Below are positions 1 to 53,347 of a stretch of 64,000 bases of DNA, piece by piece; the first letter of the stretch is position 1, and each line of letters opens with the position of its first letter. The notes beneath the pieces were generated by a model, which saw only the letters and a list, made by a program, of their open reading frames with translations, made no database searches and was not told the DNA's origin. The stretch comes from a virus. The translations under genes were made by a program, and so were the position numbers. Where the stretch lies: the IMG/VR virus record IMGVR_UViG_3300027905_000001, positions 1 through 64,000 of that record; one strand, written 5' to 3'.

Positions 1-296
1 CTTCCTCCACTTACACCTGGGTCAAGGATCGTTGCGGTGAATTGGGGAGTGCTGGATTTTACGAGCGCGATCATGGATGAGAGTTGGGCCGCTGTCATTG
101 TGCCCCATTCGACGGTGTACTTGCGTTTGTTGGCGATGTACTGGAGGTTCATTGTGCCTGCTGCGTTGCGTTTGCTGTCGCCAATCATATAAATTGAGTT
201 TGTGATCTTAGACGCCTCCGGTACGTTTGTTCCATTAACGGTTATAGTTGCCACGGCATCACATCCTTTCATTTTAGGTATAAGAAAAACCGCCAT
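1..296 (-). CDS. Tail-module protein, 5' part only (ORF runs off window start); start uncertain (ATG at 296, 272 or 188)
   Basis: Open minus-strand frame from window edge to about 296; called by position downstream of tape measure, no domain recognised. Confidence 0.3.
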   Translation of the reverse strand, partial: MAVFLIPKMKGCDAVATITVNGTNVPEASKITNSIYMIGDSKRNAAGTMNLQYIANKRKYTVEWGTMTAAQLSSMIALVKSSTPQFTATILDPGVSGG

Positions 297-348
297 GACA
301 GCGGTTGAACTTTTTTGGATTACACCAAAGTCCTTGAAGGAATCCAGC

Positions 349-1161
349 CTATCCAGTAACGCTCGATGTGTTCAAATTCCTAAGTACAGGTATAACGTTT
401 TCGTAATATCTAAAAGTTTCCACCTCCTTACTGCTACTCCTTGATTTATCATGGAATAACTTTCCGTATTCCTCAGTTTTAAGGCCATGTCTATTCGCGA
501 GTATCCCAACCATGTTGGCGCTTATCCCTAACTCCTTACCTATGTCTGTTGCTGAAAATGTTTTCATGCCAGCTTCGGGCAACGGTAGCAGGAATTCACC
601 TGTGATAATTTTAGTCGCATGGCTTTCTAGAACTTGTCTATATGTTCCGTCATATCCCCCAGCTATTTTCAGAAGAATAGCGGCTTCGCGAGCTCTAGCG
701 TTTGCCTCTCTGGTTTTTGATGCGCTCTTTTGGTATTCTGTCATTTCGATTAGTTTAGACTTGTCCGCCACATATGCGCCAGTTTGACGTATTTCAGGTA
801 GAACATCACGGCGTATCCATTTTCTGAATTGAATACCCATAGGCTTGTCGGTGTATTGGAGGAAACCATAGAGGCCGTCTTCGTAGAATATGGTTAATTG
901 GGTTGTTTTGTTTGGTACTACCATAGAAGTAGTAGCACTTTTTACCATTTCCTTGAAAGACTTAAGGACCTCGCCTCTCAATACATCATACTCGACACCT
1001 AGTTCGAATTCCTCTGCGCTGATGCAATCTTGAATAGTTTTCGAAGCGTCTGCATAATCGAGTAATGATACAACTTCACTAGCTATCCAGCATGGTTTTC
1101 CATTCCAGATAAAGGTGTGAACTTTGGTTCCGTTAAATTCTTTGATTATTAAATTATTCAC
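349..1161 (-). CDS. Phage antirepressor (Bro-N N-terminal domain plus KilA-C C-terminal domain)
   Basis: 270 aa; Bro-N-like core (FYEDGLYGF...FRKWIRRDVLPEIRQTGAY) and KilAC-like C-terminus. Confidence 0.8.
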   Translation of the reverse strand: MNNLIIKEFNGTKVHTFIWNGKPCWIASEVVSLLDYADASKTIQDCISAEEFELGVEYDVLRGEVLKSFKEMVKSATTSMVVPNKTTQLTIFYEDGLYGFLQYTDKPMGIQFRKWIRRDVLPEIRQTGAYVADKSKLIEMTEYQKSASKTREANARAREAAILLKIAGGYDGTYRQVLESHATKIITGEFLLPLPEAGMKTFSATDIGKELGISANMVGILANRHGLKTEEYGKLFHDKSRSSSKEVETFRYYENVIPVLRNLNTSSVTG

Positions 1162-1301
1162 TTTCTTTTCGCTCCTTTATTTGCCAACACTTGATAAAAG
1201 AGCATTCATTCTGTTATACTTGTAACAAAGTAAGCCTTTATTAAGGTTGGTTTTAGTTGTTTGGAAGATTCGTTGTTCTTGGTCGGAGAGCGAATCTTCC
1301 T

Positions 1302-1475
1302 TTAATTTTGTCTTTCTTTAGTTTTGAGCCATTCTGAGACAGCATCCTTGTCAAATCTAATGATGTTTCCTTGCTTAATGAAAGGCATACCGGCTTTTCG
1401 CCATCGCTCACTTGTTCTTCTGCTAATCTCAAGCCATTCGCATAACTTGTCAACCGAGATAAATTCCTTATCCAC
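1302..1475 (-). CDS. Excisionase/AlpA-family HTH (HTH_17-like) DNA-binding protein, GTG start, 57 aa
   Basis: Frame not in ORF track (under 60 aa): VDKEFISVDKLCEWLEISRRTSERWRKAGMPFIKQGNIIRFDKDAVSEWLKTKERQN; AAAGGG RBS upstream of GTG. Confidence 0.65.
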   Translation of the reverse strand: MDKEFISVDKLCEWLEISRRTSERWRKAGMPFIKQGNIIRFDKDAVSEWLKTKERQN

Positions 1476-1506
1476 CTCTCACACCCTTTCATATACCTAC
1501 ATGTAT

Positions 1507-1536
1507 ATTATACACGACAGCATACGACATGGTCAA
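1507..1536 (-). promoter_or_regulatory. Sigma-A-type promoter for the HTH/antirepressor operon (TTGACC-18-TATAAT)
   Basis: -35 TTGACC at 1531-1536 and -10 TATAAT at 1507-1512 on the minus strand, about 30 nt upstream of the GTG start. Confidence 0.5.
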
Positions 1537-1619
1537 GGTAAATTATGCAAATAAAACTCTTTACATAACCTTGTCCATAGCTGTATGATGAGGGAAATAT
1601 TAGAAGTTGGAGGAAAGCT

Positions 1620-2291
1620 ATGAATGATGAAATAGTAGGTTACGTTTGCCCTATTTGCGATACGCCAAACCCGTTGTCAACGAATTACTGCCTTAAGTGT
1701 GGGCATTGGCTATTGGATACAAATACTAAAGCAAGGCCTATTGCTAAGAGAGAATATAAACGGTATTTTAAGAATAACTCGATCGGAAGTAAGGTAGTAT
1801 CAATTATTAAATGGTTAGTGGTTGCCATACTCCTTATCTTCGTTGTTATGGTCATACTTGTTGCTTGCCATCTTCCTAGCTCGACGACTAATAACGTTCC
1901 TGTTACAAAACAAGTCGCTACGTTAAGTCCCGCCGATTTCAAAACCCAAAGTATTACTATTCCTTATGACGACATAGCCCGCCAGACTGAAGATTACGTT
2001 GGTAAAAAAACAATACTCACAGGCCAAGTGATACAAATCGAAGAAGGGCCTAATAATCAAATCATAATGCGGGTAAATATGACTAAAGGTCAATACGGAA
2101 TTTATAAAGACACAGTATGGGTAGATTACACTTACAAGCAAGGAGAGAAACGCTTCCTCGAAAAAGACATCGTGAATATATGGGGATCCGTTACGGGTCG
2201 AAAAACATACACATCAGCAATGAAGGTTGACATAACGATTCCAGAAATAAACGCATATATAATAGAGATGGCCCCACAATCTAACACTTGA
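1620..2291 (+). CDS. Membrane protein with N-terminal zinc ribbon and one transmembrane helix
   Basis: 223 aa; CPICD...CLKCGH zinc-ribbon motif, hydrophobic stretch VVSIIKWLVVAILLIFVVMVILVA; GGAGG RBS; divergent from the HTH gene. Confidence 0.6.
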   Translation: MNDEIVGYVCPICDTPNPLSTNYCLKCGHWLLDTNTKARPIAKREYKRYFKNNSIGSKVVSIIKWLVVAILLIFVVMVILVACHLPSSTTNNVPVTKQVATLSPADFKTQSITIPYDDIARQTEDYVGKKTILTGQVIQIEEGPNNQIIMRVNMTKGQYGIYKDTVWVDYTYKQGEKRFLEKDIVNIWGSVTGRKTYTSAMKVDITIPEINAYIIEMAPQSNT

Positions 2292-2296
2292 TAAAA

Positions 2297-2337
2297 ATAA
2301 CCTCAATTCGTTAATTTAGCGGACTGAGGTTATTTTA
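2297..2337. terminator. Hairpin plus T-run between convergent genes (likely bidirectional terminator)
   Basis: ATAACCTCA ... TGAGGTTAT stem followed by TTTT. Confidence 0.5.
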
Positions 2338-2340
2338 TTG

Positions 2341-5187
2341 CTACTTTGGATAGTTAAAACTCGAATCGTAACCCTGATTCGTCGAAATTCTATCATTCTC
2401 ATTCACCGTATAGGGTCTTATGATTCTCGCAAACGTGCGCCCGTCGATACTCACGTTAACTTGCATCATTTGCGATTGACCAGAATTACCACCGCTCCCT
2501 GATGTACTAGGATTGGAGTTGCTACTAATTATGCTTCCAAGTTGCCCGAGAGGTATTACTGCTTCGGGGCCAGCCTCCCCAATCATTGCTAATTGCGGTG
2601 CGGTCACAACTCCACCTGATGCAAGCGCAGGAATTGCCGACGAAGCAATACTAGCACCAACGCCAGCCAATGCCGTTCCGGCTGCCGCAATTCCTCCTGC
2701 AATCAAGTCTGTTCCACCAGTCGCGACAGTTAGCCCAGCTAGTCCAGCCGCGGCCAAGACACCTTTATTATTGCTGGCCCAATTCCCTATCCCTGTACCA
2801 ACGTTTGATATTGTTTGACCTGCCGCACTCGCTAAGGATGCTATAGATGACATCGCACTGCTGACAGCGGAGGAAAATGATTGCTCAACCTTCACCGCCC
2901 AAGTTGATACCATGGATTCAGTTGCACCAAGGGTAGCGTTCCACGCGTTTTGGAATTCTGTTCCGAACAATGACATGGCTGAGCTCGCGCTATTCGCAAA
3001 GGTCGAGAAATCAGAGGTTGCCGATGTTTCCCACGAGTGGATAGCTTGTGCTGCGGAATCGAAACCCGAATTGAAATCTTTTTCTAAAGTTGCTGCGAAC
3101 GCGCCGAGCGCCAACGAGGCGGCACCTTCCCAGCCGGAGATAGAGTTTCCGACGGATTCAAAAGCTTTTACAGCGCCAGTTTCCCACGCGGATATCGAAT
3201 TATTTATGGCGCTAAATTCTTTTTCTGCTGCGGTTTCCCATCCTGAAATAACCTCTCCAACTTGTCCAAATGCACTCGCTGCGCTTGATTCCCAATTTGA
3301 TATGGATTTTTCGACCGCACTCATATCTGCGATTAAATCAGCTTTCCAATCAGATACTTTATTTCCAATTGCATCTAAAGCCGAACTAATATCATCAGTC
3401 AGCGCAACGTCCACGTTAACCAAGCTAGGAGCAAATGATCTAACCTTATCTTGGATCTGACTGAATACCGGCTCAGTTTGATCCTGTATGTGGCAAGGTA
3501 TCATAAATGGGGCCGATGTGGGAGGGGTCGGAGGCGGCGGCATCGGCCCAAACATAACGGGTATCACTAATCCTTTATTCTTATCATTCCCCAACCCACT
3601 CAACGAATTAGCCAACCCCGATGGCACAACCGGAGGTGTTGGTGTGCCACCCGAGCCTCCTGCGCCACCTGAGCTATTACCCGAGCCTGTATCCTTCGTG
3701 ATATTATGCAATTGGTCGAAGCTCATGACATTCGCGTTCAGCGTCTTGCCTAGTGCTTTTTGCTTATCATTCAGTCCATCCGTCGATGTGCCAAGTCCAT
3801 CAGTAGACTTTGCTGCCCCATCTGCTGCCGTGCCTGTATTACTAAAGGCGTTCGACCAGTTAGCGGCCCATTGCTGCCCGATATTGCTAAAATCTCCTGA
3901 GACTAAATCCTCGAATACAGTGCGAACATCCCCCACAAAAGCGGTAATATAACGAATAGCAACGGCTAAGTCGTCACCTATCGTTATAAATACTTCTCCA
4001 ACGTCTGCGCCAACCTTTTCCAGCTCAGTTAATGCCGGAATCAAAGCATCGGACAAATTACGCTTCATTTGCTCCCAGTCTGCATTAAGTTTAGCCTGTC
4101 TATTCGAGAGAGTATCCGCTTGAGTGCCGTAATAACCAGTCGCGTCGCCAGTCTTTGCCATAATAGCTTGATAGGCCATTAACGCAGTTTGTGCGTCCGT
4201 CATAGTCTGGCCTTGTTTAATAACACCTTCGCTTAAGGCACGATTCTTAAGGTCAGTAGCGGTTATTTCAATGCCTAGACTTTTCAAGCCCCTCGTTTGT
4301 CCTTCCATGCCCATCTGTAACGACTGGAACACTTCTGACGGATCAACTCCGCGAAGCTTGCCTAAGTCATATGATAATTGCGTAATGTGCTCAGACATGT
4401 CCTCCGCTTGCTTGGGGTCGAAGCCCTGCATACTGGCGTTCATATATTCCTTGCCCATCATACCCTTGAGTGTCTGCTCGTCTACACCGTAAGAATCACT
4501 GAGTTTCTTGGTGAACACTTCTGCATCGTCACCCATTGAACCCATGGCGGCAGAGAATTGTCGCTGTGCATCTTGGGTAGTGGCTGCATAATTAGTAATG
4601 GCTTTGCCAGCGTTATATATTTTGTCGATGAACATAACTGCTAATCCAAGCGCAAATAATTCAGGTAGCGCGGTGTTAATTATGTCGCCAGCTGCTGATA
4701 ACTTCATTGCCATGCCTGTACTTGAATCACCAATCACGGCAAATGCTTCTGATAAAGTTGTCTTGAGATTGTTGAATTTTGTCATTGTTGCTGAGGTGTA
4801 CGCTTCTGCCGCATCTGCTGAGGCTGTAAAGCTCTTAACTGCACCCTTGGCGAACTCAACATGGACATCAGAAGCGTTTTGTAGGACTTTTTCGTACACC
4901 CCAATATCCACGCCAGCATCAGCAAAGGTCTGCCTTACTCGTTGTTGAAATTCTTGTAAATTCTCGCCGGATTGCATAGTAAAGTCGGCGATTGTCCGTT
5001 GGCCAGCGGCTATTGAAGCAACAAGCGAATCTGTATTCATTTTTGGAATAGCTATTCCTTTTAGGCCAACGAGTGCCTCGTTTTTAAATGTTAGTATGGA
5101 TTGTTGTGCGCCTTTTAGGGTTGTTTGGAGTTGCGAAGAATCTGCCCCAACGCGAGCAACTATATTTCCGACTACATTATCTGCCAT
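2341..5187 (-). CDS. Tail tape measure protein
   Basis: 948 aa, Ala/Gly/Ser-rich with tandem SxWE repeats and C-terminal MIGEAGPEAVIPL-type motif; last gene of the tail assembly block. Confidence 0.9.
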   Translation of the reverse strand: MADNVVGNIVARVGADSSQLQTTLKGAQQSILTFKNEALVGLKGIAIPKMNTDSLVASIAAGQRTIADFTMQSGENLQEFQQRVRQTFADAGVDIGVYEKVLQNASDVHVEFAKGAVKSFTASADAAEAYTSATMTKFNNLKTTLSEAFAVIGDSSTGMAMKLSAAGDIINTALPELFALGLAVMFIDKIYNAGKAITNYAATTQDAQRQFSAAMGSMGDDAEVFTKKLSDSYGVDEQTLKGMMGKEYMNASMQGFDPKQAEDMSEHITQLSYDLGKLRGVDPSEVFQSLQMGMEGQTRGLKSLGIEITATDLKNRALSEGVIKQGQTMTDAQTALMAYQAIMAKTGDATGYYGTQADTLSNRQAKLNADWEQMKRNLSDALIPALTELEKVGADVGEVFITIGDDLAVAIRYITAFVGDVRTVFEDLVSGDFSNIGQQWAANWSNAFSNTGTAADGAAKSTDGLGTSTDGLNDKQKALGKTLNANVMSFDQLHNITKDTGSGNSSGGAGGSGGTPTPPVVPSGLANSLSGLGNDKNKGLVIPVMFGPMPPPPTPPTSAPFMIPCHIQDQTEPVFSQIQDKVRSFAPSLVNVDVALTDDISSALDAIGNKVSDWKADLIADMSAVEKSISNWESSAASAFGQVGEVISGWETAAEKEFSAINNSISAWETGAVKAFESVGNSISGWEGAASLALGAFAATLEKDFNSGFDSAAQAIHSWETSATSDFSTFANSASSAMSLFGTEFQNAWNATLGATESMVSTWAVKVEQSFSSAVSSAMSSIASLASAAGQTISNVGTGIGNWASNNKGVLAAAGLAGLTVATGGTDLIAGGIAAAGTALAGVGASIASSAIPALASGGVVTAPQLAMIGEAGPEAVIPLGQLGSIISSNSNPSTSGSGGNSGQSQMMQVNVSIDGRTFARIIRPYTVNENDRISTNQGYDSSFNYPK
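2877..3330 (-). repeat. Tandem imperfect coding repeats inside the tape measure gene (repeated ISGWE/SAWETGA peptide units)
   Basis: Repeated peptide units around residues 620-770 of the tape measure; explains spurious antisense ORFs. Confidence 0.5.
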
Positions 5188-5721
5188 TTAATCACCCCCT
5201 ACCGTCATTGATGCTATAGCCTTATTAAGGCCGCTTCCTATTTCGCCAAGCATAGTCTGCTTTATCTCTTCAAAATGTTCGGGTAATGCTTTTTGAAGGA
5301 AGTGCGTTCCCTCCCGTTCGGTCAGACTACCATTTGCTATTCCTACCTCGCGTTCAGCAGTTCCCTTGCGTGGTATAACTCTCCTCGGTCCCTTGTAGCT
5401 CGTGAATCCAAGGTCGAAGAATCTGGCATACCACGTTGTCTTTATCCTATACACCGTTTTCCCTTGTGGAGTTTTTTCTATCTTGAGCGCCATTGCTTTT
5501 TTTAATGTTCCGCTTATGTGCTGTTCGGTTCTGCCGTATCTGCCAAGGAAATCTACCCCTTGCTGGTTGATAGGCACAAGATTTGCCAAGGCATAATTCA
5601 TAGCCATACTTGCACCTGATTTAGCAGCCTTAGTGATAAGAGATTGTGAGACATTGCCGAGTTCTTCAAATTTAGCTGTAAGTTCGTCGATTCCGTCAAT
5701 AGTTGGCTCGTAATCGCTCAT
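5188..5721 (-). CDS. HK97 gp10-like tail-component protein (likely start at internal ATG 5721)
   Basis: WYARFFDLGFT motif resembling gp10-family yARfvEfGT; GGAAGGAGG RBS before MSDYEP; stop abuts tape measure start. Confidence 0.5.
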   Translation of the reverse strand: MSDYEPTIDGIDELTAKFEELGNVSQSLITKAAKSGASMAMNYALANLVPINQQGVDFLGRYGRTEQHISGTLKKAMALKIEKTPQGKTVYRIKTTWYARFFDLGFTSYKGPRRVIPRKGTAEREVGIANGSLTEREGTHFLQKALPEHFEEIKQTMLGEIGSGLNKAIASMTVGGD

Positions 5722-5799
5722 ATTCACCCCTCCTTCCCATTCCTGCGCATTAGACAATAACCCGCCAATTACTCTCCAATATACAGGCAAGAGCAGGGC

Positions 5800-7677: not shown

Positions 7678-8130
7678 TTAGTTTTGATTTTGGCTAGGGT
7701 TGTGCGTTACTGTGATGTCGAGCACGCCTTTGTAAAGTCTCACCCTAACCTCTTCGATTTTGGGTATTAACTCGTGATAATCGTCCTCGACTTCGATTTT
7801 TTGGATGTACTGCCCACCTACATACTGGAATACAAGCGATTCTAAGAAATCTCGGATTCGTTGCTGAAGGTCAAGTAATAACCATCCGGCATTGTGGTAA
7901 ATCTCAAGGCGATAGGTACTTATGAATTGAGCGATATTACCCACTAAATCCATTTCATGAGAGCGCCCCACGCGGTTGAATGTTGCATACGGTATACCAG
8001 GAGGATCAAAAACTCCGATATAGTAAAGTTGGTACTTTTGATTACCGTTACTATCCGTGTAGATGAAATCCGTGATGGTTGGGTTAACTTTCATGAAAGC
8101 GAACAACCCAGTTTCGAAGGATTGGTTCAT
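7678..8130 (-). CDS. Tail completion / head-tail joining protein (tentative)
   Basis: 150 aa, by position between head closure and major tail genes. Confidence 0.45.
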   Translation of the reverse strand: MNQSFETGLFAFMKVNPTITDFIYTDSNGNQKYQLYYIGVFDPPGIPYATFNRVGRSHEMDLVGNIAQFISTYRLEIYHNAGWLLLDLQQRIRDFLESLVFQYVGGQYIQKIEVEDDYHELIPKIEEVRVRLYKGVLDITVTHNPSQNQN

Positions 8131-13685: not shown

Positions 13686-15386
13686 TTAAATTAAACTGTC
13701 GAATATCTCTTTTTTCCTCAAGTAAACCGTATACGCATCCAGGAGACTAAGTGCCCCATCAATGAATCCTTTTGACTTGACCTTAACTGGGGTTATATTA
13801 GCGTTTCGGTCAGTTTCGACAGCTAAATTGCACAAGCAAAATTCGAGCATTGGGTTTTTATTGTAGTTAATTCTCTTCATTCCAAAGTCTGCACCCATGT
13901 CTTTCAACGGCCTATTTAACGTCTTCCCACCTTGAATAACCTTGGCATCCTCCTTGACCATCGCACTCCCAAAGCCCTCATTTTCCATTTCCTTAATCCA
14001 GTATTCGGAATTCCAAAAATCATATCCTATGGTTTGGATATACAAGTTATAATCATCACGCATATCCACGAACCAACTTGTTACATATGAATAATCAACT
14101 CTATTTCCCGGTGTCAGCGTGAGTAATCCGCGATCTATCCAAGCCTGATAAACAACTTGCTTGGCAGGTGGTGCGTTAATGAACGTTTCGGATGGCATCC
14201 AATACATTTGGTGGCAGAGGAATTTATTTTCTAGCCTCGGAAATAATAACGTCGCGCTCGTTAAGTCAGTCGTGCTACTAAGATCAACCCCTCCGACACA
14301 GTAAAGTCCTTTGATTTCTTCAAGCTCAAATGTTTCCTCATTCCGAATTGTACTGTATTCAAGGAACGCATTACTCAGCGTACCAATGACGTTAAAGTCT
14401 TTAGTCAAGACAGTATTCTTAAAAGTTCGGTCAACCGCCGCTTTCCTAACGTTTTCCCTCAGCGTTTTGACAACTTTAATAGTTCCAAGCCCAGGGTTCG
14501 CCTTTACCCAAACTGATTCATTCTTGAAATCGTCATCCTTGTCCAGTATATAAAGCAAAGGTAGAAAATGTTCGTCCTCGTAACCCTCTATCCCGTTTAT
14601 TACATTAACCGCATATTCGAACTGGAAGTCAAAGATACTCTCACGAATGAATCCGGCAGTCGTTATGCACCACATTAACGGTTGATCCCTAGTGCCGAAA
14701 GACTGTTTCATTACGTCATAGAGTTCTCTTGTACGCATTCCATGTAATTCGTCCATAAGACAAACGTGTGTATTCAATCCGTCTAGACTATTTCCATCAC
14801 TGGATAATGGCTCAAACTTACTAAATGTCGCGGGGAAGCTTAGGTCAGTTCGACGCTTTTTGATGTGCTTTTGAAGAGAGGTTGATTGCCTGACGATGTT
14901 CGTTGCTTCCGCAAAGATGATTTTTGACTGATCGAGCTTCGTGGCTACGCTGTAAACCTCACTGCCGCCTTCGCCATCCCCGACAAGCCCATACAATCCA
15001 AGCGCTGCCGCCAGACTACTCTTACCGTTCTTGCGACCAACTAGTAGTAATACTTCTGTATATTTCCTAAGACCTTCTGAATTAACAAACCCATAAACCA
15101 ATTGGAGCATTGCCTTTTCCCACAAATCCAGCACAAATGGCTTCCCTATCCACTTCCCTTTACTCTGCTTGCATAACGTTTCAACGAAGTCAATCGGCTT
15201 AGTGCCCTTCTTAATATCGAAGTGGTACTCGCCTGGATTGCTCAAGTCATCGACTATCTTTTCATAGGCTTTCTTAACATAAATACATGCTACTATTTCG
15301 CCTGATTGGATTTTATCGTTGTATTCTGTGATGTAGTTAACAAAAGGCTCACTGAGCGTAGCGTTGGAGGAATTCGAGCAAGTCAT
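13686..15386 (-). CDS. terL: Terminase large subunit (likely start at ATG 15386; track start 15410)
   Basis: Walker A GRKNGKS, Walker B-like LMDELH, C-terminal nuclease-like region; GGGGAGG RBS before MTCSNSS. Confidence 0.9.
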   Translation of the reverse strand: MTCSNSSNATLSEPFVNYITEYNDKIQSGEIVACIYVKKAYEKIVDDLSNPGEYHFDIKKGTKPIDFVETLCKQSKGKWIGKPFVLDLWEKAMLQLVYGFVNSEGLRKYTEVLLLVGRKNGKSSLAAALGLYGLVGDGEGGSEVYSVATKLDQSKIIFAEATNIVRQSTSLQKHIKKRRTDLSFPATFSKFEPLSSDGNSLDGLNTHVCLMDELHGMRTRELYDVMKQSFGTRDQPLMWCITTAGFIRESIFDFQFEYAVNVINGIEGYEDEHFLPLLYILDKDDDFKNESVWVKANPGLGTIKVVKTLRENVRKAAVDRTFKNTVLTKDFNVIGTLSNAFLEYSTIRNEETFELEEIKGLYCVGGVDLSSTTDLTSATLLFPRLENKFLCHQMYWMPSETFINAPPAKQVVYQAWIDRGLLTLTPGNRVDYSYVTSWFVDMRDDYNLYIQTIGYDFWNSEYWIKEMENEGFGSAMVKEDAKVIQGGKTLNRPLKDMGADFGMKRINYNKNPMLEFCLCNLAVETDRNANITPVKVKSKGFIDGALSLLDAYTVYLRKKEIFDSLI

Positions 15387-15645
15387 CTTTAGTTTCCTCC
15401 CCTTTCGCATCAGGTAACATCTTAAGTAGCTTATCCACTAAATTAGCATAAGCCCTAGTCCCGGAGTAGTACATGGTCACGTCTTTAGCCTTTGCTGTGC
15501 CGCCGTTTATTTTGGCACTAAGCTTTTTGATGATAATGTTTATGTCTGCCATTTGAGCTATGAAGTCGCGGGCTATGTTGCGTTGTTCAGGTTGGATTAG
15601 GGATAGGAGATCGTCGAGGGGGTTGAGTTCGATTGTTGGTTCCAT
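15349..15645 (-). CDS. Hypothetical protein (98 aa) overlapping terL start
   Basis: ORF with 3' end overlapping terL by about 38 nt; no motif recognised. Confidence 0.45.
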   Translation of the reverse strand: MEPTIELNPLDDLLSLIQPEQRNIARDFIAQMADINIIIKKLSAKINGGTAKAKDVTMYYSGTRAYANLVDKLLKMLPDAKGEETKDDLLEFLQRYAQ

Positions 15646-16011
15646 ATTTTAGCCTCCGTATAAAACCAAAAAAGGCGGCTACCAACACATTCCGTTATGG
15701 AGTGCATTGATAACCGCCTTTTGCAGGTAGGTTATGTTATTAAATTAAATGTTGATTTGAATTTGCACCACGCAGGAGCCTTGGTCATTAACCCTAATTC
15801 GCTAATAACTCTGGCCTTACCGCTCTCTCCCACTTTGCCTATCATGGCATCACTGAAGCTTTCATACGTGGTTGATGCCCATATAATCGTCCTGCCTCTT
15901 TTGCTTTCGAAAAAACACTTAGCGCGCCACGTTTTGCGATCGTCCTCTGAGATTGTGTTATACTCACAACCAATACAACTCAAATATCATCATCCTCTCG
16001 TTTTCGAGTCG

Positions 16012-16146
16012 TTAAATCTTCTCCTTAACAGTCGTCTCTACCGTCTTAACTTTTCCGTCATGACAGACAATCTTGACTTCTCCATAGTCGGGGAGTGTGA
16101 TCGTTTTATCCTTGCCGTCGTGGGATAGTGTGATTTTGTTTTGCAT
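16012..16146 (-). CDS. Hypothetical small protein (44 aa), translationally coupled (TAATG)
   Basis: MQNKITLSHDGKDKTITLPDYGEVKIVCHDGKVKTVETTVKEKI; GGAGGT RBS; ATG overlaps upstream stop. Confidence 0.45.
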   Translation of the reverse strand: MQNKITLSHDGKDKTITLPDYGEVKIVCHDGKVKTVETTVKEKI

Positions 16147-17018
16147 TAGTTACCTCCGTTGGGTGATTTCCACAAGTCTCGTTCACGGCACAAAGGACAT
16201 CTACTCAAGCCGTTATCTTCTTTGCTCTTGCAATTATAGCAGGTTATTGGTCGCCATCTGCTGTATTTAAAGCACCTCAACCCATCGCAACTTTCGCCGA
16301 TTGCTTCGGCACAATTCTGACATGACTTTTCTTTTACTTTTATTTCGATTGGCTCCCATTTATTGAGATTGGTACATTTGTAATATTGTCGGCAACACCC
16401 CTCCTCAACATTTCTGCAAGTGGTACAGCCCTTCGCTTGTTTCTCTTCACTGGGCTCACTGCTTGCCCCCATTTTAATTAGTGCTTGTCCGAGTTCGAGG
16501 GCTTCTTGTGGGGTTAATTTTTGATTAAGCACGTAGTACGTGCCATGCATCTGAACACGAACGCTGTCAATGCACCCACGGTCAACCTTCAGTGTCATAT
16601 CATCTTTAGTTATCTCGACATTTTCTATCTCGCCATCCTCATCATTGGCATTGTAGATGGCGTTTATTTGTTCCATGCACTCATTAAAGGTAATAGCTCC
16701 ACTATAAAGAAATGCCAGCCATTTAGACGCTTGTCCTTCTTTATCCACTGGCTTATATGTAATTTTAACGTTGGACATTTTGGGTTCCTCCTCTAACTTC
16801 TTTATTGCTAACTTAAGTTCTTCGAGTACGATTTCAATTCCGTCAAGTGGGTGATGTTTATCGAAAACATGATAACAACCGTCTGGAAGTCTTTTGTATC
16901 TATTTGCCTTTTTCCGCTTTTCGCTCAAGACTTTTATTAACTTCTCTATTCCGAAGCAAATACAGGTTAGAGACGTGATCGTTATTATGCAAAATGCCAA
17001 GGTTAGCATTAGTTGCAA
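16146..17018 (-). CDS. Membrane-anchored Cys-rich protein
   Basis: 290 aa; N-terminal hydrophobic helix; C-terminal third with many CxxC pairs. Confidence 0.5.
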   Translation of the reverse strand: MQLMLTLAFCIITITSLTCICFGIEKLIKVLSEKRKKANRYKRLPDGCYHVFDKHHPLDGIEIVLEELKLAIKKLEEEPKMSNVKITYKPVDKEGQASKWLAFLYSGAITFNECMEQINAIYNANDEDGEIENVEITKDDMTLKVDRGCIDSVRVQMHGTYYVLNQKLTPQEALELGQALIKMGASSEPSEEKQAKGCTTCRNVEEGCCRQYYKCTNLNKWEPIEIKVKEKSCQNCAEAIGESCDGLRCFKYSRWRPITCYNCKSKEDNGLSRCPLCRERDLWKSPNGGN

Positions 17019-17341
17019 CCCTCCGATTCCTGCACTATCTCTACTCGCTTATCACAAATAGGACAGTGAATAGTCGGTCTGCCAACAAGCTTCCTGCTTA
17101 TGTAAAGTTCAATCTTGCCACACCTTGGGCAGTCGCCGTATGTCATAATTCTAGGGTTTTTGACGCTTCCGTGGCCTACAGTTGGGATTAGTTGGCCTTC
17201 GTTTTTAGCTTTACACTTCTCCTTAGATCTATTTATGAAAATTATCATTGCCCACGAAAAGGCAACGCAAGATGCCATAAGAAGTATCCACGCAATCTCA
17301 AGAAAGAAGTTTGCTATCTGCTGGTTCATGCCGCACCTCAC
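17009..17341 (-). CDS. Small membrane protein with C-terminal zinc ribbon
   Basis: 110 aa; transmembrane segment IAWILLMASCVAFSWAMIIFI; CPRCG...CPICD. Confidence 0.5.
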   Translation of the reverse strand: MRCGMNQQIANFFLEIAWILLMASCVAFSWAMIIFINRSKEKCKAKNEGQLIPTVGHGSVKNPRIMTYGDCPRCGKIELYISRKLVGRPTIHCPICDKRVEIVQESEGCN

Positions 17342-17859
17342 TTCGACTTCAATAACCTAAACTTCTGTTTCGCATATTCAGGGATGAAATTATCTAAATC
17401 CTTTTGAAACAATAGGTAGAGATTGAGTGACAATCTATTCGACGAAAAGAAGTAGATCGGATTGAAGTACCATTGAGTGATTACATCATCACCAATCTTT
17501 ACCTCGATCTTAGCCATAATTCTTTTCTTAACCATCCTATTAAGGAATAAAACAGTATGTCTTTCGGTATCTCGGATTACGTTTGCCATTTGCGGTATGT
17601 CCATTGCCTTTATGCCACCATTGCCACGGTAGCCGATCATATTAGTTGTCGAGTAAACTTTCTTACTTAACAAAAACAGATTAGCTATATCAGACTTGGT
17701 TATTTCGTTTGGCAATTCTACATCCTGAAACGTTTTGACGAAACTGCTTTTATTCCAAAAGAGATAACCTTTTTCTTCGTCGAACATATCTTTGAAGTAT
17801 GTCTTCTTTGTGCTCACAACGTTACCATGGTCATCTGTTATTTCGGTCGCCCTTATCAT
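17338..17859 (-). CDS. Hypothetical protein (possible winged-helix DNA-binding protein)
   Basis: 173 aa ORF coupled to downstream gene; weak resemblance to RepL-like winged-helix proteins. Confidence 0.4.
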   Translation of the reverse strand: MIRATEITDDHGNVVSTKKTYFKDMFDEEKGYLFWNKSSFVKTFQDVELPNEITKSDIANLFLLSKKVYSTTNMIGYRGNGGIKAMDIPQMANVIRDTERHTVLFLNRMVKKRIMAKIEVKIGDDVITQWYFNPIYFFSSNRLSLNLYLLFQKDLDNFIPEYAKQKFRLLKSK

Positions 17860-18020
17860 CGAATCACCTCTAAAATCGTGGGTACATTTAAGGCGTTCTA
17901 TGTACCTGTAAAATTTGACTACCTAAAATGCTGAAACCCTTGGTATAAGCGACTTTAAGGGTTCTGGATTAAGTAAATCATGCAAACTCACATATATTAT
18001 ATACGTGTGAATCTGCATGA

Positions 18021-18329
18021 TTAGAGTTGTTTTGCGTCTACCTTCTCCACCCAAACTATATCCCCATTAGCATCGAACTTCAGCTCATCATCATGCCTAG
18101 CTCTAGTTTGTTCGTGGCACTTCCTGCATAGGAGTTCGAGGTTATTCCAGCTATAGCACTTCTCAGGGTTGTTAACGGTGTCCCATGCTGTTATAGGGTC
18201 CTTGTGGTGGACTTCTTCGCCTTTGGATCCGCATTGCTCACAGAGACCGAACTTAGAGGCAAAGAAAGCTTTGCGGCATTTGATCCAGGCGCTTCGTCCG
18301 TAGAATAGTTTGAGTTGGCCTTGACTCAT
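18021..18329 (-). CDS. HNH endonuclease (terminase-associated type)
   Basis: 102 aa; CEQCG...VHHKDP...LELLCRKCHEQ (HNH with zinc-binding Cys pairs). Confidence 0.85.
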   Translation of the reverse strand: MSQGQLKLFYGRSAWIKCRKAFFASKFGLCEQCGSKGEEVHHKDPITAWDTVNNPEKCYSWNNLELLCRKCHEQTRARHDDELKFDANGDIVWVEKVDAKQL

Positions 18330-18871
18330 TGGGTATCGTTTGCGATATCAACCGCATAGGGGAGTATCATTACCTTTAAGTTGGGGCATTGGGATTGTAG
18401 ATCGTTGCGCAGCCTTTCTATATCGTCACAACGTAGTAATGCACCAAGTTTCAGGACTAATGTATCGCTATTCATGATAGTAGCGGTGCTAATGATATAA
18501 TTAGTCTGAAAACTCATCTTTTTGTTAATCTCTTCAAGCATCGATTTCACATCTCGCTCAGAGTATTCCTTTTCTCTACGCCATGTTACGGTTATTGCGT
18601 CGTTGCTTTCTTGTACTTGGACATTATAAGTTGGTGTAGATTCCGCAAGGCCAAGTAAGTCAAATCGGTTTGAGTAGCCCCTGTATATCATACTTCTAGT
18701 CATAAAGTCGTTCTCAACGGCTACGACAAGAACATCCCTAAGTACCTCAACTACTCCTTCTGGATTAGATTGCAAAAGGTCTTGGCTTATAGAGAATGTT
18801 CCTCTTCTGTCGAGCAGGACGCTTTCTTTGCGCTTGTTTTGGCAGAAAACGTTTTTACCTAAGTTACCCAT
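18326..18871 (-). CDS. Hypothetical protein (likely start at ATG 18871; track start 18919)
   Basis: ORF with GGAGTGAGG RBS before internal MGNLGKN; no motif recognised. Confidence 0.5.
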   Translation of the reverse strand: MGNLGKNVFCQNKRKESVLLDRRGTFSISQDLLQSNPEGVVEVLRDVLVVAVENDFMTRSMIYRGYSNRFDLLGLAESTPTYNVQVQESNDAITVTWRREKEYSERDVKSMLEEINKKMSFQTNYIISTATIMNSDTLVLKLGALLRCDDIERLRNDLQSQCPNLKVMILPYAVDIANDTQ

Positions 18872-19047
18872 TTTCCTCACTCCTTCTTGTTCGGTTAGGT
18901 CATCGTCTCTAGTGTTCATGCAATTACCACCTTTTACCTATACTTACGAGAACATAAAATTACTTACCAAGTTTTTGCCGAATTTCTGGGGTGAAATCAA
19001 AAAACACCACTCAGTATCACGAGCCTTTGGTACACGGCAGATGGTTT

Positions 19048-19099
19048 AACCCCCTGGTATAGGGGTTGGGGGGTGCCTTTATCCCCTCTTTTATACCAG
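19048..19099. repeat. G/C-rich nested inverted repeats downstream of terS (possible packaging-site or structured element)
   Basis: AACCCC(19048-19053)/GGGGTT(19062-19067) hairpin nested within CTGGTATA(19054-19061)/TATACCAG(19092-19099). Confidence 0.35.
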
Positions 19100-19230
19100 T
19101 TTTCGACATAGTTGGGGCATCAATCCGGCATTTAACAACTTCCAGCGCTTGGTTAGCGCATCCGGCTGGCTATTCACCGCCTAAGTTATTCTTAGCCTCA
19201 CATCTCACCCCTGCCTCAGAAGTCTCCTGC

Positions 19231-20130
19231 CTAGATACTATCCTCAGCAGCCTTGCGCCGGATCTCTAAGTCAGCCTCATTAACTGCGGTCCTGCGCTCT
19301 GCAAGTTTAAGATTAGCGTCATCAACTTTGCGCCGATGCTGATCCGGAGTGAGGTCAAAGAAGTCCGCCAGCCGGTCAAGTGCCTTATGCTTGTCGTGGA
19401 ACTTAATAGAGATACCATCCTTAGTCTGCCGAATCTCCTGCACCATCGAAGTGTCCACCTGGTCGCTGTTTTTGATCCTAACGAAGTTGACATCCTGCAC
19501 CTGGTACTGACCGTCCGGGCCGACTACGCGCTGGCCGTCGAGATATACCCAATCCTGAGTGGTCCCGAACTCAAAGAAGTCTCCAGGATCGGACATTGCT
19601 ATTTTTTCGTAGACCTCCAGTACATCGCGCTTGGTAAGAAAGATGTCCTGAGCTATATCACCTTTCAGCCGCCGGATCTCTGCCGCAACCTTAACGTCTC
19701 TTAACATCCGGCTGCCCTGGACATGTGCGCCGGCCTTTGGACACCCTGCTTTTATTGCGGCCATCGTTGCGTTGTGATCCTTGACAAAGTGTAGCGCGAA
19801 TAGCTGCTGCTTTTCTGTGAGCGGCGAACTCTCTACTATATAATGCGTCTCGCTCCCGGCTGCTTCTTCCGGCCGTTTCTTTCCCTGGTCCGTTGCCGCT
19901 TTCTTCCGGCCGGACTTCTTGTCCGTTGCAACGCTCTTCTTTTGCGTTGCATTGCGTTGCTTGCCTTGCGTTGCGTTCTGCGTTGCATCGTTGGCCGCTT
20001 CTGCTTTGGCCCAGTTCTCTCTGTTCTTCCGGCTGCGGATCGTGCCCGCGCTGATTCCGTGTTTTGCTGCAAGGTCCCGAAGCGTAATCTCTGTCGTCTC
20101 GTATTCTGCGCGTATTACTAGCCAATCCAT
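19231..20130 (-). CDS. terS: Terminase small subunit
   Basis: N-terminal HTH (ITLRDLAAKHGIS), low-complexity basic linker, conserved LTEKQQLFALHFV...NATMAAIKAG core. Confidence 0.8.
   Translation of the reverse strand: MDWLVIRAEYETTEITLRDLAAKHGISAGTIRSRKNRENWAKAEAANDATQNATQGKQRNATQKKSVATDKKSGRKKAATDQGKKRPEEAAGSETHYIVESSPLTEKQQLFALHFVKDHNATMAAIKAGCPKAGAHVQGSRMLRDVKVAAEIRRLKGDIAQDIFLTKRDVLEVYEKIAMSDPGDFFEFGTTQDWVYLDGQRVVGPDGQYQVQDVNFVRIKNSDQVDTSMVQEIRQTKDGISIKFHDKHKALDRLADFFDLTPDQHRRKVDDANLKLAERRTAVNEADLEIRRKAAEDSI
19928..19994. repeat. Tandem imperfect TTGCGTTGC repeats inside terS (coding for NATQ-type repeats)
   Basis: About seven overlapping copies of GCGTTGC/TTGCG between 19928 and 19994. 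Confidence 0.5.
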
Positions 20131-20202: not shown

Positions 20203-20236
20203 AAGTTAAGATCTAATTTTGAAGGAGGTAAACGGC

Positions 20237-20632
20237 ATGACAAAGCTCGAAATTGCTAAAAACATTAATGCCATCAAGGATTTAGGCCGCATTATTGCAA
20301 CGAATTGGGAGATGGACTTTGTTGAAGGAGGAATCTATGACAATAAGGGCAATGTCGAAAGCTGGACTGACCGTGATAATTCAAAAGTGGCCTTTAAGCC
20401 CGAAAGCACCGGCACGATAACTTATGTCCTTCAATGCAATAAAGTCCCCTGTCACGTAGTAGACTACACTAGCACTGATGAAACTCGCGCCCTTGGCGCT
20501 ACTGGCTGTGAAGATGAAGCTGAATGCCTGGTATTACCTGAAACAAAAATGATAATTACCTACGTTTCCACTGAAGATGATTTCAACGAAATGGGATATT
20601 ACTTAGTGGAAATGGAGATTGTCAATGAGTAA
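20237..20632 (+). CDS. Hypothetical protein (131 aa)
   Basis: GAAGGAGG RBS 8 nt before ATG 20237; no motif recognised. Confidence 0.6.
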   Translation: MTKLEIAKNINAIKDLGRIIATNWEMDFVEGGIYDNKGNVESWTDRDNSKVAFKPESTGTITYVLQCNKVPCHVVDYTSTDETRALGATGCEDEAECLVLPETKMIITYVSTEDDFNEMGYYLVEMEIVNE

Positions 20633-21230
20633 TCGCCATGGACACCCCCTTACTTCTGAACAAAAGGGAGCGAGGGAGATTGAATATCGGAAAATGGCAT
20701 TGGAATTTCATAAAGAAACAGGACGTTCGCCCCGGATGGCAGACTTACCTTTTCCTTATAAAATCTTTAAGGTTCACGACACGTGGAATGCATTTCTTGA
20801 AGATTGCGGGCTAGAGGTTAACCGTTTAACCACGGACGTTGAGAAATATTCTTTAATATTCGATTACAAGGAATTAGCTAAAAACTTAGAACGGACTCCT
20901 TACGCATTAGAATTTTATAAAAAATTTGGTTGCCAATACGCAGTCCGCAAATTATTTGGATCATGGAATGCATTTGTTAAAGCTTGTGATCTTAAATTAA
21001 ATAGATTCACAGGAGCAGAAAAAGAAGAACTTGTGGAACGCGTCTTGAAATTAGCTAAGAAATTAGGTAAAACACCTACAACTCGTGAATTTAATGCACA
21101 CGCAAAGAAAAGTAATCTATGCACGACGATGGTTATATGTCGGTATTTCGGAACATGGACGGAATGCCTTGAGTTTTGCGGGTTAGAGCCTAACCAAAAT
21201 AAAAATTTTAAGCGTAGAAAGAAGGATTAG
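20619..21230 (+). CDS. Protein with three tandem ~55-aa repeats (tentatively homing-endonuclease-associated HTH-like repeat)
   Basis: Repeats ending WNAFLEDCGLE / WNAFVKACDLK / WTECLEFCGLE. Confidence 0.55.
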   Translation: MSMSNRHGHPLTSEQKGAREIEYRKMALEFHKETGRSPRMADLPFPYKIFKVHDTWNAFLEDCGLEVNRLTTDVEKYSLIFDYKELAKNLERTPYALEFYKKFGCQYAVRKLFGSWNAFVKACDLKLNRFTGAEKEELVERVLKLAKKLGKTPTTREFNAHAKKSNLCTTMVICRYFGTWTECLEFCGLEPNQNKNFKRRKKD

Positions 21231-21232
21231 CG

Positions 21233-21397
21233 ATGGCAGAAACAACAACCGACGACCGCGAACGCATGACACTACGCATCCCCCAGGACATTTGGCGCAT
21301 GATCAAAATGGACCTGATTGACAAAAAAGAAAAGTCGGCCAATGAGCTTATCACAAACTTAATATATGAGCACTACAAAGTACCCCGGCCGCAATAG
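21233..21397 (+). CDS. Ribbon-helix-helix (CopG/Arc-like) DNA-binding protein, 54 aa
   Basis: Not in ORF track (under 60 aa); MAETTTDDRERMTLRIPQDIWRMIKMDLIDKK...; GAAGGA RBS; start overlaps upstream stop. Confidence 0.55.
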   Translation: MAETTTDDRERMTLRIPQDIWRMIKMDLIDKKEKSANELITNLIYEHYKVPRPQ

Positions 21398-21447
21398 CTG
21401 GGGGTTTTCTTTACCTAAAAATACTTAATATTTATTGTCTTAATGCC

Positions 21448-21476
21448 TTGACACCACGACATAAAAGATGTATTAT
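21448..21476 (+). promoter_or_regulatory. Sigma-A-type promoter (TTGACA-17-TATTAT) with long GC-rich leader
   Basis: -35 TTGACA 21448-21453, -10 TATTAT 21471-21476; shares CTTGACACCAYGAYATAA with the 20185 region. Confidence 0.55.
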
Positions 21477-21648
21477 TAACACATGGAAAACAGCACTCCA
21501 GCCCAATCCAGTGCAACAAACGCTTCCCCCGGCCAATTGCGGTCCGGGTCCGCCAAGAAGCCGAGAGAGAAAAGTTGACCGTGTGTCAGGGAAGAAGATT
21601 AATCCCGACAGGCTACAAAGGGAGCCGGGGAAAAAGGAGTTTTAAATT

Positions 21649-21858
21649 ATGAAACAAACTTATTACAGCGTTGGTTATTACTCAGGAAGATCGAACAGCA
21701 CTAGCACGGCGTTTTTTGATACTAAAGAGGCGGCTGAAAAATTTGCAGATCATGATTACAGGGATAACGTGGTAGCGCATCACGTGAGCAAGCCTGAGAC
21801 GATTGCGAAATACGATGAGCTAGTTGCTATGACGGCGTTTGAGCTTAGAGACCGTTAG
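21649..21858 (+). CDS. Hypothetical protein (69 aa)
   Basis: AAAAAGGAG RBS then ATG; no motif. Confidence 0.55.
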   Translation: MKQTYYSVGYYSGRSNSTSTAFFDTKEAAEKFADHDYRDNVVAHHVSKPETIAKYDELVAMTAFELRDR

Positions 21859-21971
21859 GATTTGCAGATGGCACCGGCCAGCACCCGGTGTAATGCACTA
21901 GCAGGCGTCCAAAGTCGCCGCAAATGCATCCCGACAGCTCGCAAGGAACGGGGAAAAGGAGGTCAGGACAG

Positions 21972-22418
21972 ATGCTCTATCACAGATTTACTAACTCATC
22001 AAACGTAATGTCCAACTGGGGTCACGCAATGTTTGCGGCCAACAGGGACGCGGTCGAAAATTACGGTAGTAAAGAGTTTATCTTTAAATCATCTAGGGAC
22101 AATAGCAAAACGATCAAGTCGCTCAAATCACTGATTATCAAAACTTGGAAGTACGATCAAAAAAATGGCTTTACCGGGGACTTTGGCAACGGCTGCACAG
22201 ATGATTACTACTACAACGTCAAGGATAATGCAGTGGACGCTATTAGTATTTACAACAGCTTTGACCCGTCTAGCGTTGTGGAGAGCGCCGATGCTTGGGA
22301 CTCCGAGCTTTATCAATGGTTTTGGGAGCGTATCGCGGAGCCTAACGGCATTATGGCAGTTACAACTCAAGATGGGGCAATAGTATTTGATGCAGACTTA
22401 ATTAAGGAGGTATGTTAA
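21972..22418 (+). CDS. Hypothetical protein (148 aa; track start 21924)
   Basis: GGAAAAGGAGG RBS before ATG 21972. Confidence 0.55.
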   Translation: MLYHRFTNSSNVMSNWGHAMFAANRDAVENYGSKEFIFKSSRDNSKTIKSLKSLIIKTWKYDQKNGFTGDFGNGCTDDYYYNVKDNAVDAISIYNSFDPSSVVESADAWDSELYQWFWERIAEPNGIMAVTTQDGAIVFDADLIKEVC

Positions 22419-22679
22419 ATGTCTAATGAGGATGACGTTATGTTTTTCAAAATAGCAAAGGTTAAAGCCGCTATCAGCAGGGTCCTAGACGGGTGCGTAA
22501 ACGAGTTGCCGGATATCCAGTTTGGATGGAGCGGATCAGTTATCGAGGTTTATTTATCCGGCGGTAATTATCAAGTCCGCAACCTTATCGAGTCCCATTT
22601 TGTAAATAGCAGGAGGTATAAAGGCGTTACAATTACAAACAACGACACCAAAAAGCGTATCAGCTTTATTTTAAATTAA
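22419..22679 (+). CDS. Hypothetical protein (86 aa)
   Basis: AAGGAGG RBS, start abuts upstream stop. Confidence 0.55.
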   Translation: MSNEDDVMFFKIAKVKAAISRVLDGCVNELPDIQFGWSGSVIEVYLSGGNYQVRNLIESHFVNSRRYKGVTITNNDTKKRISFILN

Positions 22680-22700
22680 GAAATTGAAGGAGTGTTAAAA

Positions 22701-22919
22701 ATGAAACGATTAGACATTTTTAAAAGCGAAGGTGGATACAGATTAGCATTGGGAATCTACAACGACAGCCCCGTAATTGACAAGTCTCCTTGGTTCGAAA
22801 CCAAGGAAGAGGCCGAAAAAGCAAGGCGCGAAGTCATAGAAGAAGATGAGCGAGAAGCCAAAATTGAGCAGTATATCCAAGATGGCAATATCGAGGCCCT
22901 CGAAAACATGGATAAGTAA
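22701..22919 (+). CDS. Hypothetical protein (72 aa; track start 22692 GTG)
   Basis: GAAGGAG RBS before ATG 22701; acidic C-terminus. Confidence 0.5.
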   Translation: MKRLDIFKSEGGYRLALGIYNDSPVIDKSPWFETKEEAEKARREVIEEDEREAKIEQYIQDGNIEALENMDK

Positions 22920-23013
22920 TTGCAGAGGATTAGGAGCCTAAAAACTCCTAATAATGCGCTAGGCAAGCGGTTCCAAGCCCGCGCCAATCGCAATTTTGAA
23001 AGGTGGAGCAATC

Positions 23014-23250
23014 ATGAAATACACCATAGCTGAATACCACGGCATAGACCGGCACCAAATGCAAGCCCATACCGAGGAAATCATTACCAAGCTTGAATTT
23101 ATTCGAACAACATGCACGGATGCCGAATCGCTCGAATACACTGACGCCCAACTCGAATTTTACCGCGAAGAACTAGCCAGTAAATCCCTGCTTATGTCAT
23201 CATGGTGGGAAGTTGAGAACTACATGCGGAAAGGTAGGAAAATAGCATGA
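23014..23250 (+). CDS. Hypothetical protein (78 aa)
   Basis: AGGTGGAG RBS before ATG 23014. Confidence 0.5.
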   Translation: MKYTIAEYHGIDRHQMQAHTEEIITKLEFIRTTCTDAESLEYTDAQLEFYREELASKSLLMSSWWEVENYMRKGRKIA

Positions 23251-23438
23251 CCATCTACATCCATGAGTTTTACAAGGACAAGGAAAAGGCGCTCGCATTG
23301 GCTGAACTACCGGACGAACTAGATTATCACCGATTTGTCCACGGCTGTGAGCCTAAAAAGGTGAACATAGTCCCTTATTGGGCAGATTGCGACAAGTACA
23401 AGGCGAATAAGTCCACCATGACACTGTTTATTAGCTAA
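23247..23438 (+). CDS. Hypothetical protein (63 aa)
   Basis: Start overlaps upstream stop (ATGA). Confidence 0.45.
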   Translation: MTIYIHEFYKDKEKALALAELPDELDYHRFVHGCEPKKVNIVPYWADCDKYKANKSTMTLFIS

Positions 23439-23518
23439 CATCAAGGCTTTTAGCCTTGGCTCAGCCGCTTTTTGAGCGGTTCAGCGAGGACTAAAAACGA
23501 ATGAAAGAGGTAATTTAC

Positions 23519-24439: not shown

Positions 24440-24523
24440 TTATATCGCGGGACCATCTTTGGCCCTGCTCCAAATGTCCGATTATGGGCACTTGGAGGAG
24501 AATCAAAATTTAGAGGTGATCAA

Positions 24524-24712: not shown

Positions 24713-24767
24713 ATCCACGCCGGACTATTCCGGTTTTTTCCCAACTAAAATTAAGGAGGAATAACTT

Positions 24768-53345: not shown

Positions 53346-53347
53346 GT

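Follow-up and report, generated by a model that had tools for sequence, protein, structure and literature searches.

The ant moron of P22-like phages, which comprises the immunity I genes mnt, arc, sar and ant together with sieA, forms an island within the late operon that is variable and has its own expression, and antitermination or leakiness across it has been discussed (PMC2629481). The name moron was first given to gene 15 of phage HK97, a membrane superinfection-exclusion gene inserted beside the tape measure gene (PMC3594210). In prophages of Clostridioides difficile, Bro-N and ORF6N genes have been described beside clustered regularly interspaced short palindromic repeat (CRISPR) arrays in the same structural region, with the Bro-N genes adjoining the tape measure gene (Hargreaves et al., PMC4173771). 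Here we describe a 2.1-kb block of three accessory genes that, in a Desulfosporosinus prophage, separates the tape measure gene from the first distal-tail gene. The block lies in positions 1 to 64,000 of the IMG/VR record IMGVR_UViG_3300027905_000001; this whole stretch of 64,000 nt is referred to as the window, and its open reading frames were scanned with Pfam and PHROG. The three genes encode a zinc-ribbon membrane protein, a 57-aa helix-turn-helix (HTH) protein and a 270-aa antirepressor-like protein with a Bro-N domain.

The segment from about 255 to 2340 is interpreted as a composite moron island at the junction of the tape measure and DUF6711 genes of a siphovirus-type prophage, operating by a two-module mechanism that is described below. 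We estimate the probability of this interpretation at roughly 60%. The tape measure gene (2341..5187, minus strand; 948 aa; phrog_1535, E 1.4e-36) forms the upstream border of the insertion. It is followed by a bidirectional intrinsic terminator (2294..2336), by the zinc-ribbon gene on the plus strand (1620..2291, 223 aa), and by a divergent promoter region of 144 nt between 1475 and 1620. The minus strand then carries the HTH gene (1302..1475, 57 aa) as the first gene of its operon, a spacer of 140 nt (1162..1301) with a strong hairpin at 1263..1300, the antirepressor-like gene (349..1161, 270 aa) and an intrinsic-terminator-like hairpin (288..306) just upstream of the DUF6711 start. The 5′ part of the DUF6711 gene (1..254, minus strand) runs past the window edge. 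The original prediction, made from the letters of this DNA, had described the block as a regulatory moron in the tail module. All elements that it named were recovered in place or nearly so. The interpretation as an inserted moron is supported, with refinements: two nested modules are recognized instead of one, and the membrane protein is not obviously regulatory.

The block displays the properties by which morons have been defined (Juhala/Hendrix). It is missing from the same position in related phages (20 loci), it carries its own predicted promoters (1536..1507 on the minus strand, 1560..1589 on the plus strand) and terminators (2294..2336 and 288..306), and its base composition is unlike that of the flanking genes. 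The GC content is 39.2% in the block versus 47.6% in the tape measure gene, 50.2% in DUF6711 and 45.3% in the structural module. The related loci were obtained by searching a DUF6711 alignment in metagenomes and GTDB genomes, and others through protein look-ups; the window proteins were run against them by tblastn. The tape measure protein as a query recovered no relatives in GTDB genomes and IMG/VR, and megablast of positions 1..5200 against GenBank phages returned no matches. In 20 distinct related prophage loci, the tape measure proteins of which are 41-57% identical to that of the window, at most about 50 nt separate the tape measure stop from the DUF6711 start, and all three cassette genes are absent. 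The usual empty junction consists of a tape measure protein ending in YN(L/Y)PK, its stop codon TAG, GTGAAACC and ATG. Since the tape measure stop abuts the DUF6711 start in these relatives, the block is an insertion. The genes are therefore not universal at this position, which the original prediction had left to be settled by comparison.

The P22 ant moron is a close analogue. Both are accessory blocks with transcription of their own, inserted among the virion genes of the late operon. In each, a strong promoter precedes the gene for a small DNA-binding protein and, immediately after it, the antirepressor gene, and a membrane protein gene is found within the same island. The content is highly variable among otherwise syntenic relatives, and late transcription has to cross the island. 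The differences concern the host, the location and the protein families. The island described here belongs to a siphovirus-type phage of a Gram-positive host and occupies the junction between tape measure and Dit genes, not that between ejection protein and tailspike genes. Its regulator is an HTH_17 winged helix, unlike the ribbon-helix-helix proteins Arc and Mnt, and its antirepressor has a Bro-N N-terminus instead of P22_AR_N, with Bro-N as the only domain that Pfam finds. The membrane protein is unrelated to SieA, and for an antisense RNA the sequence gives no more than a weak hint. With HK97 gp15 the block shares a lone membrane-protein gene with its own promoter and terminator in the tail operon beside the tape measure gene. 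However, HK97 gp15 is a small YebO-like inner-membrane protein encoded upstream of the tape measure gene, whereas the protein described here combines a zinc ribbon, a transmembrane segment and an OB-fold and is encoded downstream. Exclusion has been demonstrated for HK97 gp15; for the zinc-ribbon protein it is suggested by analogy.

The island of the C. difficile phages agrees with the present one in position. The gene order in phage CDKM15 (NC_048643) is tape measure protein, SHOCT, CRISPR array, CopG, Bro-N and baseplate. As in the window, the island immediately adjoins the tape measure gene and precedes the baseplate genes, the gene immediately upstream of Bro-N encodes a small DNA-binding regulator, and a gene for a membrane-associated protein is present. 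The Bro-N N-terminal domains are homologous, with 58-59% identity over 135 aa. These phages differ in being myoviruses of another host, in having a CopG (ribbon-helix-helix) regulator, a SHOCT membrane protein and CRISPR arrays, in the C-terminal half of the Bro-N protein, and in the orientation of the genes, which follow the late operon. The annotated array of CDKM15 (locus L081, 5112..5531) has 7 repeats of 29 bp and lies between the SHOCT gene and the CopG/Bro-N pair; no CRISPR array is present in the window cassette. In phage CDMH1 a Bro-N gene is located between an XkdN-like chaperone gene and that for the tape measure protein, and the IMG/VR locus L046 has the order tape measure protein, transmembrane protein, Bro-N and baseplate. 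In Firmicutes phages, it would seem, Bro-N antirepressor genes paired with membrane-protein genes have repeatedly been inserted at the border of the tape measure gene. P22, HK97 and the C. difficile phages already provide examples of this kind of island; the one described here differs in its HTH_17 and zinc-ribbon/OB partner families and in its host, and otherwise agrees in architecture and position.

Another explanation would be that the cassette is an assembly artefact, or that its genes truly belong to the tail module. DUF6711 is the gene in which the window ends, as do the Logan contigs L001 and L002, which suggests a repeat that is difficult to assemble at this place. The order of tape measure gene, cassette and DUF6711 is nevertheless identical in an independent Logan assembly (L001/L007), so that a chimera is unlikely. 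The cassette domains are those of regulators or membrane proteins and not of structural proteins, one of the genes has the opposite orientation, and the 20 relatives build the same tail module without any of them. This explanation is therefore considered extremely improbable. The contigs L001 and L002, which are independent of each other, break within the DUF6711 gene at about window positions 27 and 255. The same metagenome-assembled genome holds at least one further DUF6711 prophage (P0025, 76% identity), and related prophages may collapse or break assemblies at this point.

The composite nature of the island became evident from locus L008. In this locus a zinc-ribbon homologue directly adjoins the DUF6711 gene in divergent orientation, and the HTH gene is missing. 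From the 5′ end of the zinc-ribbon gene through its promoter to position 1559, the window and L008 share 86% nucleotide identity, and similarity is detected again from position 191, within DUF6711. Because L008 has the membrane-protein module only, the HTH-antirepressor operon (about 255..1558) represents an additional indel of about 1.3 kb. The island is layered: the zinc-ribbon gene and its promoter (1559..2340) are common to L008, and the HTH-antirepressor operon is the additional layer. In the related metagenomic phage of locus L021, a 292-aa GIY-YIG-type homing endonuclease (1304..2182) is encoded between the tape measure and DUF6711 genes. The junction is considered an insertion hot spot, as this endonuclease occupies the same site. 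A direct repeat with 13 of 14 matches, ATGAAAGGRTGTGA, flanks the HTH-antirepressor module and was considered as an insertion scar. It was rejected as not significant, as we estimate that about 0.4 such repeats would arise by chance in 2.2 kb, and each copy belongs to the context of a ribosome-binding site. At 1186..1199 and 2283..2296 the sequence AACACTTGATAAAA is found as an exact direct repeat of 14 nt (about 0.01-0.03 expected in 2.2 kb, estimate). The stop codon of the zinc-ribbon gene is spanned by one copy; the second, in the HTH-antirepressor spacer, contains a plus-strand promoter-like -35 element.

The frame following the cassette was predicted to be the place where the tail module resumes. 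The minus-strand frame open from 296 to the window edge encodes the N-terminus of a DUF6711 (PF20458) protein. The protein P0001 is 100% identical to it, comprises 134 aa as called and matches DUF6711 with 33.9 bits (cut-off 27). A further 45 DUF6711 homologues were found, mainly in Desulfosporosinus and Desulfitobacteriaceae. DUF6711 has a tail-tube-like beta-sandwich fold of the kind seen in tail-tube, Dit and lambda gpM proteins. In relatives the gene always directly follows the tape measure gene, as is true of the 20 loci, and it is itself followed by a gene for a protein of about 600 aa, by more genes for tail or fibre proteins and by that for an Amidase_2 lysin. This fold and the downstream genes of the relatives indicate that the tail module resumes past the cassette, which supports the assignment of the 1..296 frame to a tail gene. 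Searches of the named Dit and minor-tail Pfam families did not place the protein in any of them; it matched DUF6711 and phrog_1194 (unknown function) only. We regard it as a minimal Dit/gpM-like distal tail protein. The position of the start codon, by contrast, had to be revised. All homologues begin with MAT(L/I)TVNG, which aligns with the GTG at 254..252, and a ribosome-binding site, AAAGGA (264..269, minus strand, read from the sequence), is found 9 nt upstream of this codon. For these two reasons GTG 254..252 is most likely the start, and not the ATG at 296; this ATG falls in the loop of the 288..306 hairpin.

The block is predicted to form two transcription units with back-to-back sigma-70-like promoters, each closed by a terminator. 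The tape measure and zinc-ribbon genes share the inverted repeat at 2294..2336. Folding confirmed the prediction of a bidirectional terminator after the tape measure gene: the free energy is -20.4 kcal/mol (z -6.2) on the plus strand and -16.0 kcal/mol (z -4.5) on the minus strand, with a U-run after the stem on each strand. The hairpin at 288..306 has 8 pairs, 4 of them GC (-10.3 kcal/mol, z -2.7), is followed by UUUUUCUU and ends the HTH-antirepressor operon. The promoter-like site of this operon, designated Pant (TTGACC-18-TATAAT, 1507..1536, minus strand), matches the consensus at 11 of 12 positions and is the best such site in 1..2700, in line with the proposal of an own promoter for the operon. 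The site TTTACA-18-TATGAT (1560..1589, plus strand) faces the zinc-ribbon gene and is kept in L008. The -35 elements of the two promoters are 23 bp apart. An inverted repeat with 11-nt arms separated by 28 nt, ATGGTCAAGGT / ACCTTGTCCAT, is located at 1529..1578. Its arms are two exact matches, the only ones in the 64 kb; one spans the -35 element of Pant and the other lies within the zinc-ribbon promoter, in its spacer. The repeat is a candidate for the operator at which the HTH protein acts. A third promoter-like site, TTGATA-18-TATACT with an extended -10 TG (1191..1220, plus strand), is found in the spacer between the HTH and antirepressor genes. The 1263..1300 hairpin in this spacer, antisense to the transcript of the operon, is terminator-like on the plus strand only, where a T-run follows it. 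It is speculative that the spacer encodes a short sar-like antisense RNA. An Rfam scan of 1..2500 gave nothing credible.

The first module consists of the zinc-ribbon gene. Its 223-aa product has a CxxC...CxxC zinc ribbon and one predicted transmembrane helix (residues 56-83) with a K/R-rich N-flank, as expected for the plus-strand membrane zinc-ribbon gene that had been predicted. The Pfam matches of the protein itself are below threshold, and its homologues pass those of DZR and Zn_Ribbon_1. The zinc ribbon is predicted to be cytoplasmic and is combined with a predicted extracytoplasmic OB-fold domain. Among viral structures, it is matched best by phage lipoproteins and by OB proteins with a membrane anchor. 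The protein shows the trait of exclusion proteins in being membrane-anchored and encoded in a prophage accessory unit with its own predicted promoter and terminator.

The second module begins with the HTH gene. Its 57-aa product matches HTH_17 (PF12728) with 27.5 bits (cut-off 27) and the TIGR01764 family "excise" with 33.2 bits (cut-off 28.8). Both curated cut-offs are passed; the protein is an excisionase-family winged-HTH protein, and its HTH_17-like identity was predicted correctly. It might instead be the excisionase, or recombination directionality factor, of the large serine recombinase encoded at 53348..54826, in which case the operon would be an induction module of the xis-ant type. 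In addition to the TIGR01764 match, the protein matches PHROG excisionase families and is weakly similar to the directionality factor RdfS, and no other excisionase candidate was identified beside the integrase. However, HTH_17 is a generic winged-helix domain that is also found in regulators and terminase small subunits. The phage matches of the protein sit among early or replication genes; one is annotated as an excisionase, and none has been demonstrated to be one. The directionality factors of serine integrases come from many unrelated families. The gene comes right after a strong promoter with an overlapping inverted repeat, a location that suits an autoregulator, and a role in excision is accordingly regarded as improbable.

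The second gene of the operon had been predicted to encode a Bro-N/KilA-C antirepressor. Bro-N was confirmed (PF02498, 39.9 bits, cut-off 25.6, residues 14-122), but KilA-C was not: the C-terminal half of the 270-aa protein has no match to KilA-C/ANT (PF03374) in Pfam at E<=0.1. Both halves are covered by matches to PHROG anti-repressor families (E 1e-30 to 1e-40). The family is large, with more than 1000 matches, and the C-terminal half is found joined to P22_AR_N or ORF6N N-termini in other proteins. The nearest homologues (69-76% identity) are late-region inserts between tail-fibre and holin/Amidase_2 genes; one (L034/L035) belongs to a phage of the DUF6711 type and one (L074) to a baseplate-J phage. 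A 68%-identical homologue (L036) adjoins a lipoprotein gene. No homologue of the 57-aa HTH protein was found beside the antirepressor homologues in L034-L037, L074 and 38 IMG/VR loci. In L034 (about 7830..8000) and L074 (about 7850..8000), the antirepressor homologues share a conserved 5′ leader of about 150 nt with a hairpin (AAAGGGGCGTTTGAATG ... GTGCCTACGCCGTGTYGRCCTAATGAKCGYTAGGCAT ... GGTTAGGGTGTTTTAAGTG), which was not seen upstream of the antirepressor gene of the window. This leader may be a cis-regulatory RNA; a search of the L034 region gave no Rfam match for it.

The prophage that carries the island has terminase, portal, protease and capsid genes in the rest of the window and a lysogeny module at 52340..54826. 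This module contains a repressor gene, the large serine recombinase gene and two Rha-family genes transcribed divergently. Three copies of a motif containing ATATTAACG are found in it and may be operators. The repressor (52986..53345, 119 aa) has an HTH_3 domain, and its Pfam matches are to HTH domains only. Repressors without a cleavage domain are the setting in which antirepressors trigger induction, as in P22 and the Gifsy phages. By analogy, induction driven by the antirepressor may apply to the repressor of this prophage. A different function has to be weighed, however. Instead of an antirepressor of a CI-type repressor, the Bro-N protein, by itself or together with the HTH protein, could be a DNA-binding or defence-type factor acting on other phages or host transcription. 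Such a role has been suggested for the Bro-N genes beside prophage CRISPR arrays in C. difficile, Bro-N homologues adjoin membrane proteins or lipoproteins in accessory islands, and an inducing signal such as a LexA box was not found. The strong matches to several PHROG anti-repressor families and the nature of the resident repressor argue against it, and the PADLOC defence models did not match the Bro-N protein. We therefore consider a defence-type role unlikely.

For the composite island, we propose a mechanism of two modules. The zinc-ribbon protein would be produced in the lysogen from its own promoter and would be anchored in the cytoplasmic membrane, its OB domain facing outwards. The protein would act as a lysogenic-conversion factor, most plausibly by superinfection exclusion at DNA entry, like HK97 gp15 or P22 SieA. 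In the second module, the 57-aa HTH protein would bind the inverted repeat overlapping both promoters and would autoregulate its operon, as Arc does in P22. The Bro-N protein would bind and inactivate a CI-type repressor, which could be the 119-aa HTH_3 repressor of the prophage itself or one that a co-resident phage encodes. Between the tape measure gene and DUF6711, late transcription would have to cross two terminators; antitermination or leaky termination would therefore be required for expression of the distal-tail genes.

Several observations weigh against this interpretation. The promoters, the operator and the protein targets are derived from sequence, and the antirepressor label of the Bro-N protein comes mostly from homology; no solved structure matched this protein by sequence. 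Scans with PADLOC and NCBIfam gave generic HTH similarity only, and neither the antirepressor nor the membrane protein had a convincing match to a defence model. Upstream of Pant no LexA (Cheo) box was found, and the CI-operator-like repeat of the immunity region, ATATTAACG, is absent from the cassette promoters. One arm of the ATGGTCAAGGT / ACCTTGTCCAT repeat is partly kept in L008, which has no HTH gene, so that the repeat may be promoter sequence and not an operator. Homologues of the zinc-ribbon protein also occur beside chromosomal genes (L038) and in a context resembling an integrative and conjugative element (ICE; L039), for which reason a phage-directed role is not required. This distribution resembles that of HK97 gp15, which has cellular YebO relatives. 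Finally, DUF6711 is cut off at the end of both the window and the Logan contig, and the genes downstream are known from the relatives alone. In its most elaborate form, the proposal would make the island a Gram-positive functional convergence on immunity I and sieA of P22. A short antisense RNA made from the spacer between the HTH and antirepressor genes and the HTH_17 autorepressor would gate a trans-acting antirepressor, the surface-exposed OB-fold protein would block DNA entry by way of the tape measure or Dit protein of incoming relatives, and the two internal terminators would tie the supply of distal-tail proteins to the state of the island. We consider this full scheme very unlikely.

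The island represents a clean and comparatively dated case of layered moron acquisition, as four states of one junction can be compared: empty, with the membrane gene, with the membrane gene and the HTH-antirepressor operon, and with a homing endonuclease. The hosts, sulfate-reducing Desulfosporosinus from peat, belong to a little-studied group. Should the antirepressor act in trans, induction of the several related prophages in these genomes could be coupled through it. Current concepts are left unchanged by these findings; known ones are extended to a new host and to new protein families, and no new mechanism has been demonstrated.

Further features were noted elsewhere in the window. The minus-strand gene at 5188..5790, with a probable start at an ATG near 5721, has homologues (46-49% identity) in L004, L005 and L006, where they are flanked by the head-completion gene on one side and, on the other, by the gene that precedes the major tail protein. 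This canonical slot is empty in the window, which points to an apparent relocation of a structural gene. About 3.8 kb (15411..19230) lie between the large terminase gene (13686..15410) and the small terminase gene (19231..20130); the open reading frames of this interval, one of them on the plus strand, have no Pfam matches. A second plus-strand island (20219..25382) lies upstream of the small terminase gene and includes the gene for an HNH_repeat protein (20619..21230). Further accessory insertions in this prophage are thus likely. Just past the integrase gene, FtsK/SpoIIIE-like and Replic_Relax genes (56524..58605) suggest that an ICE-like or conjugative element adjoins the prophage.

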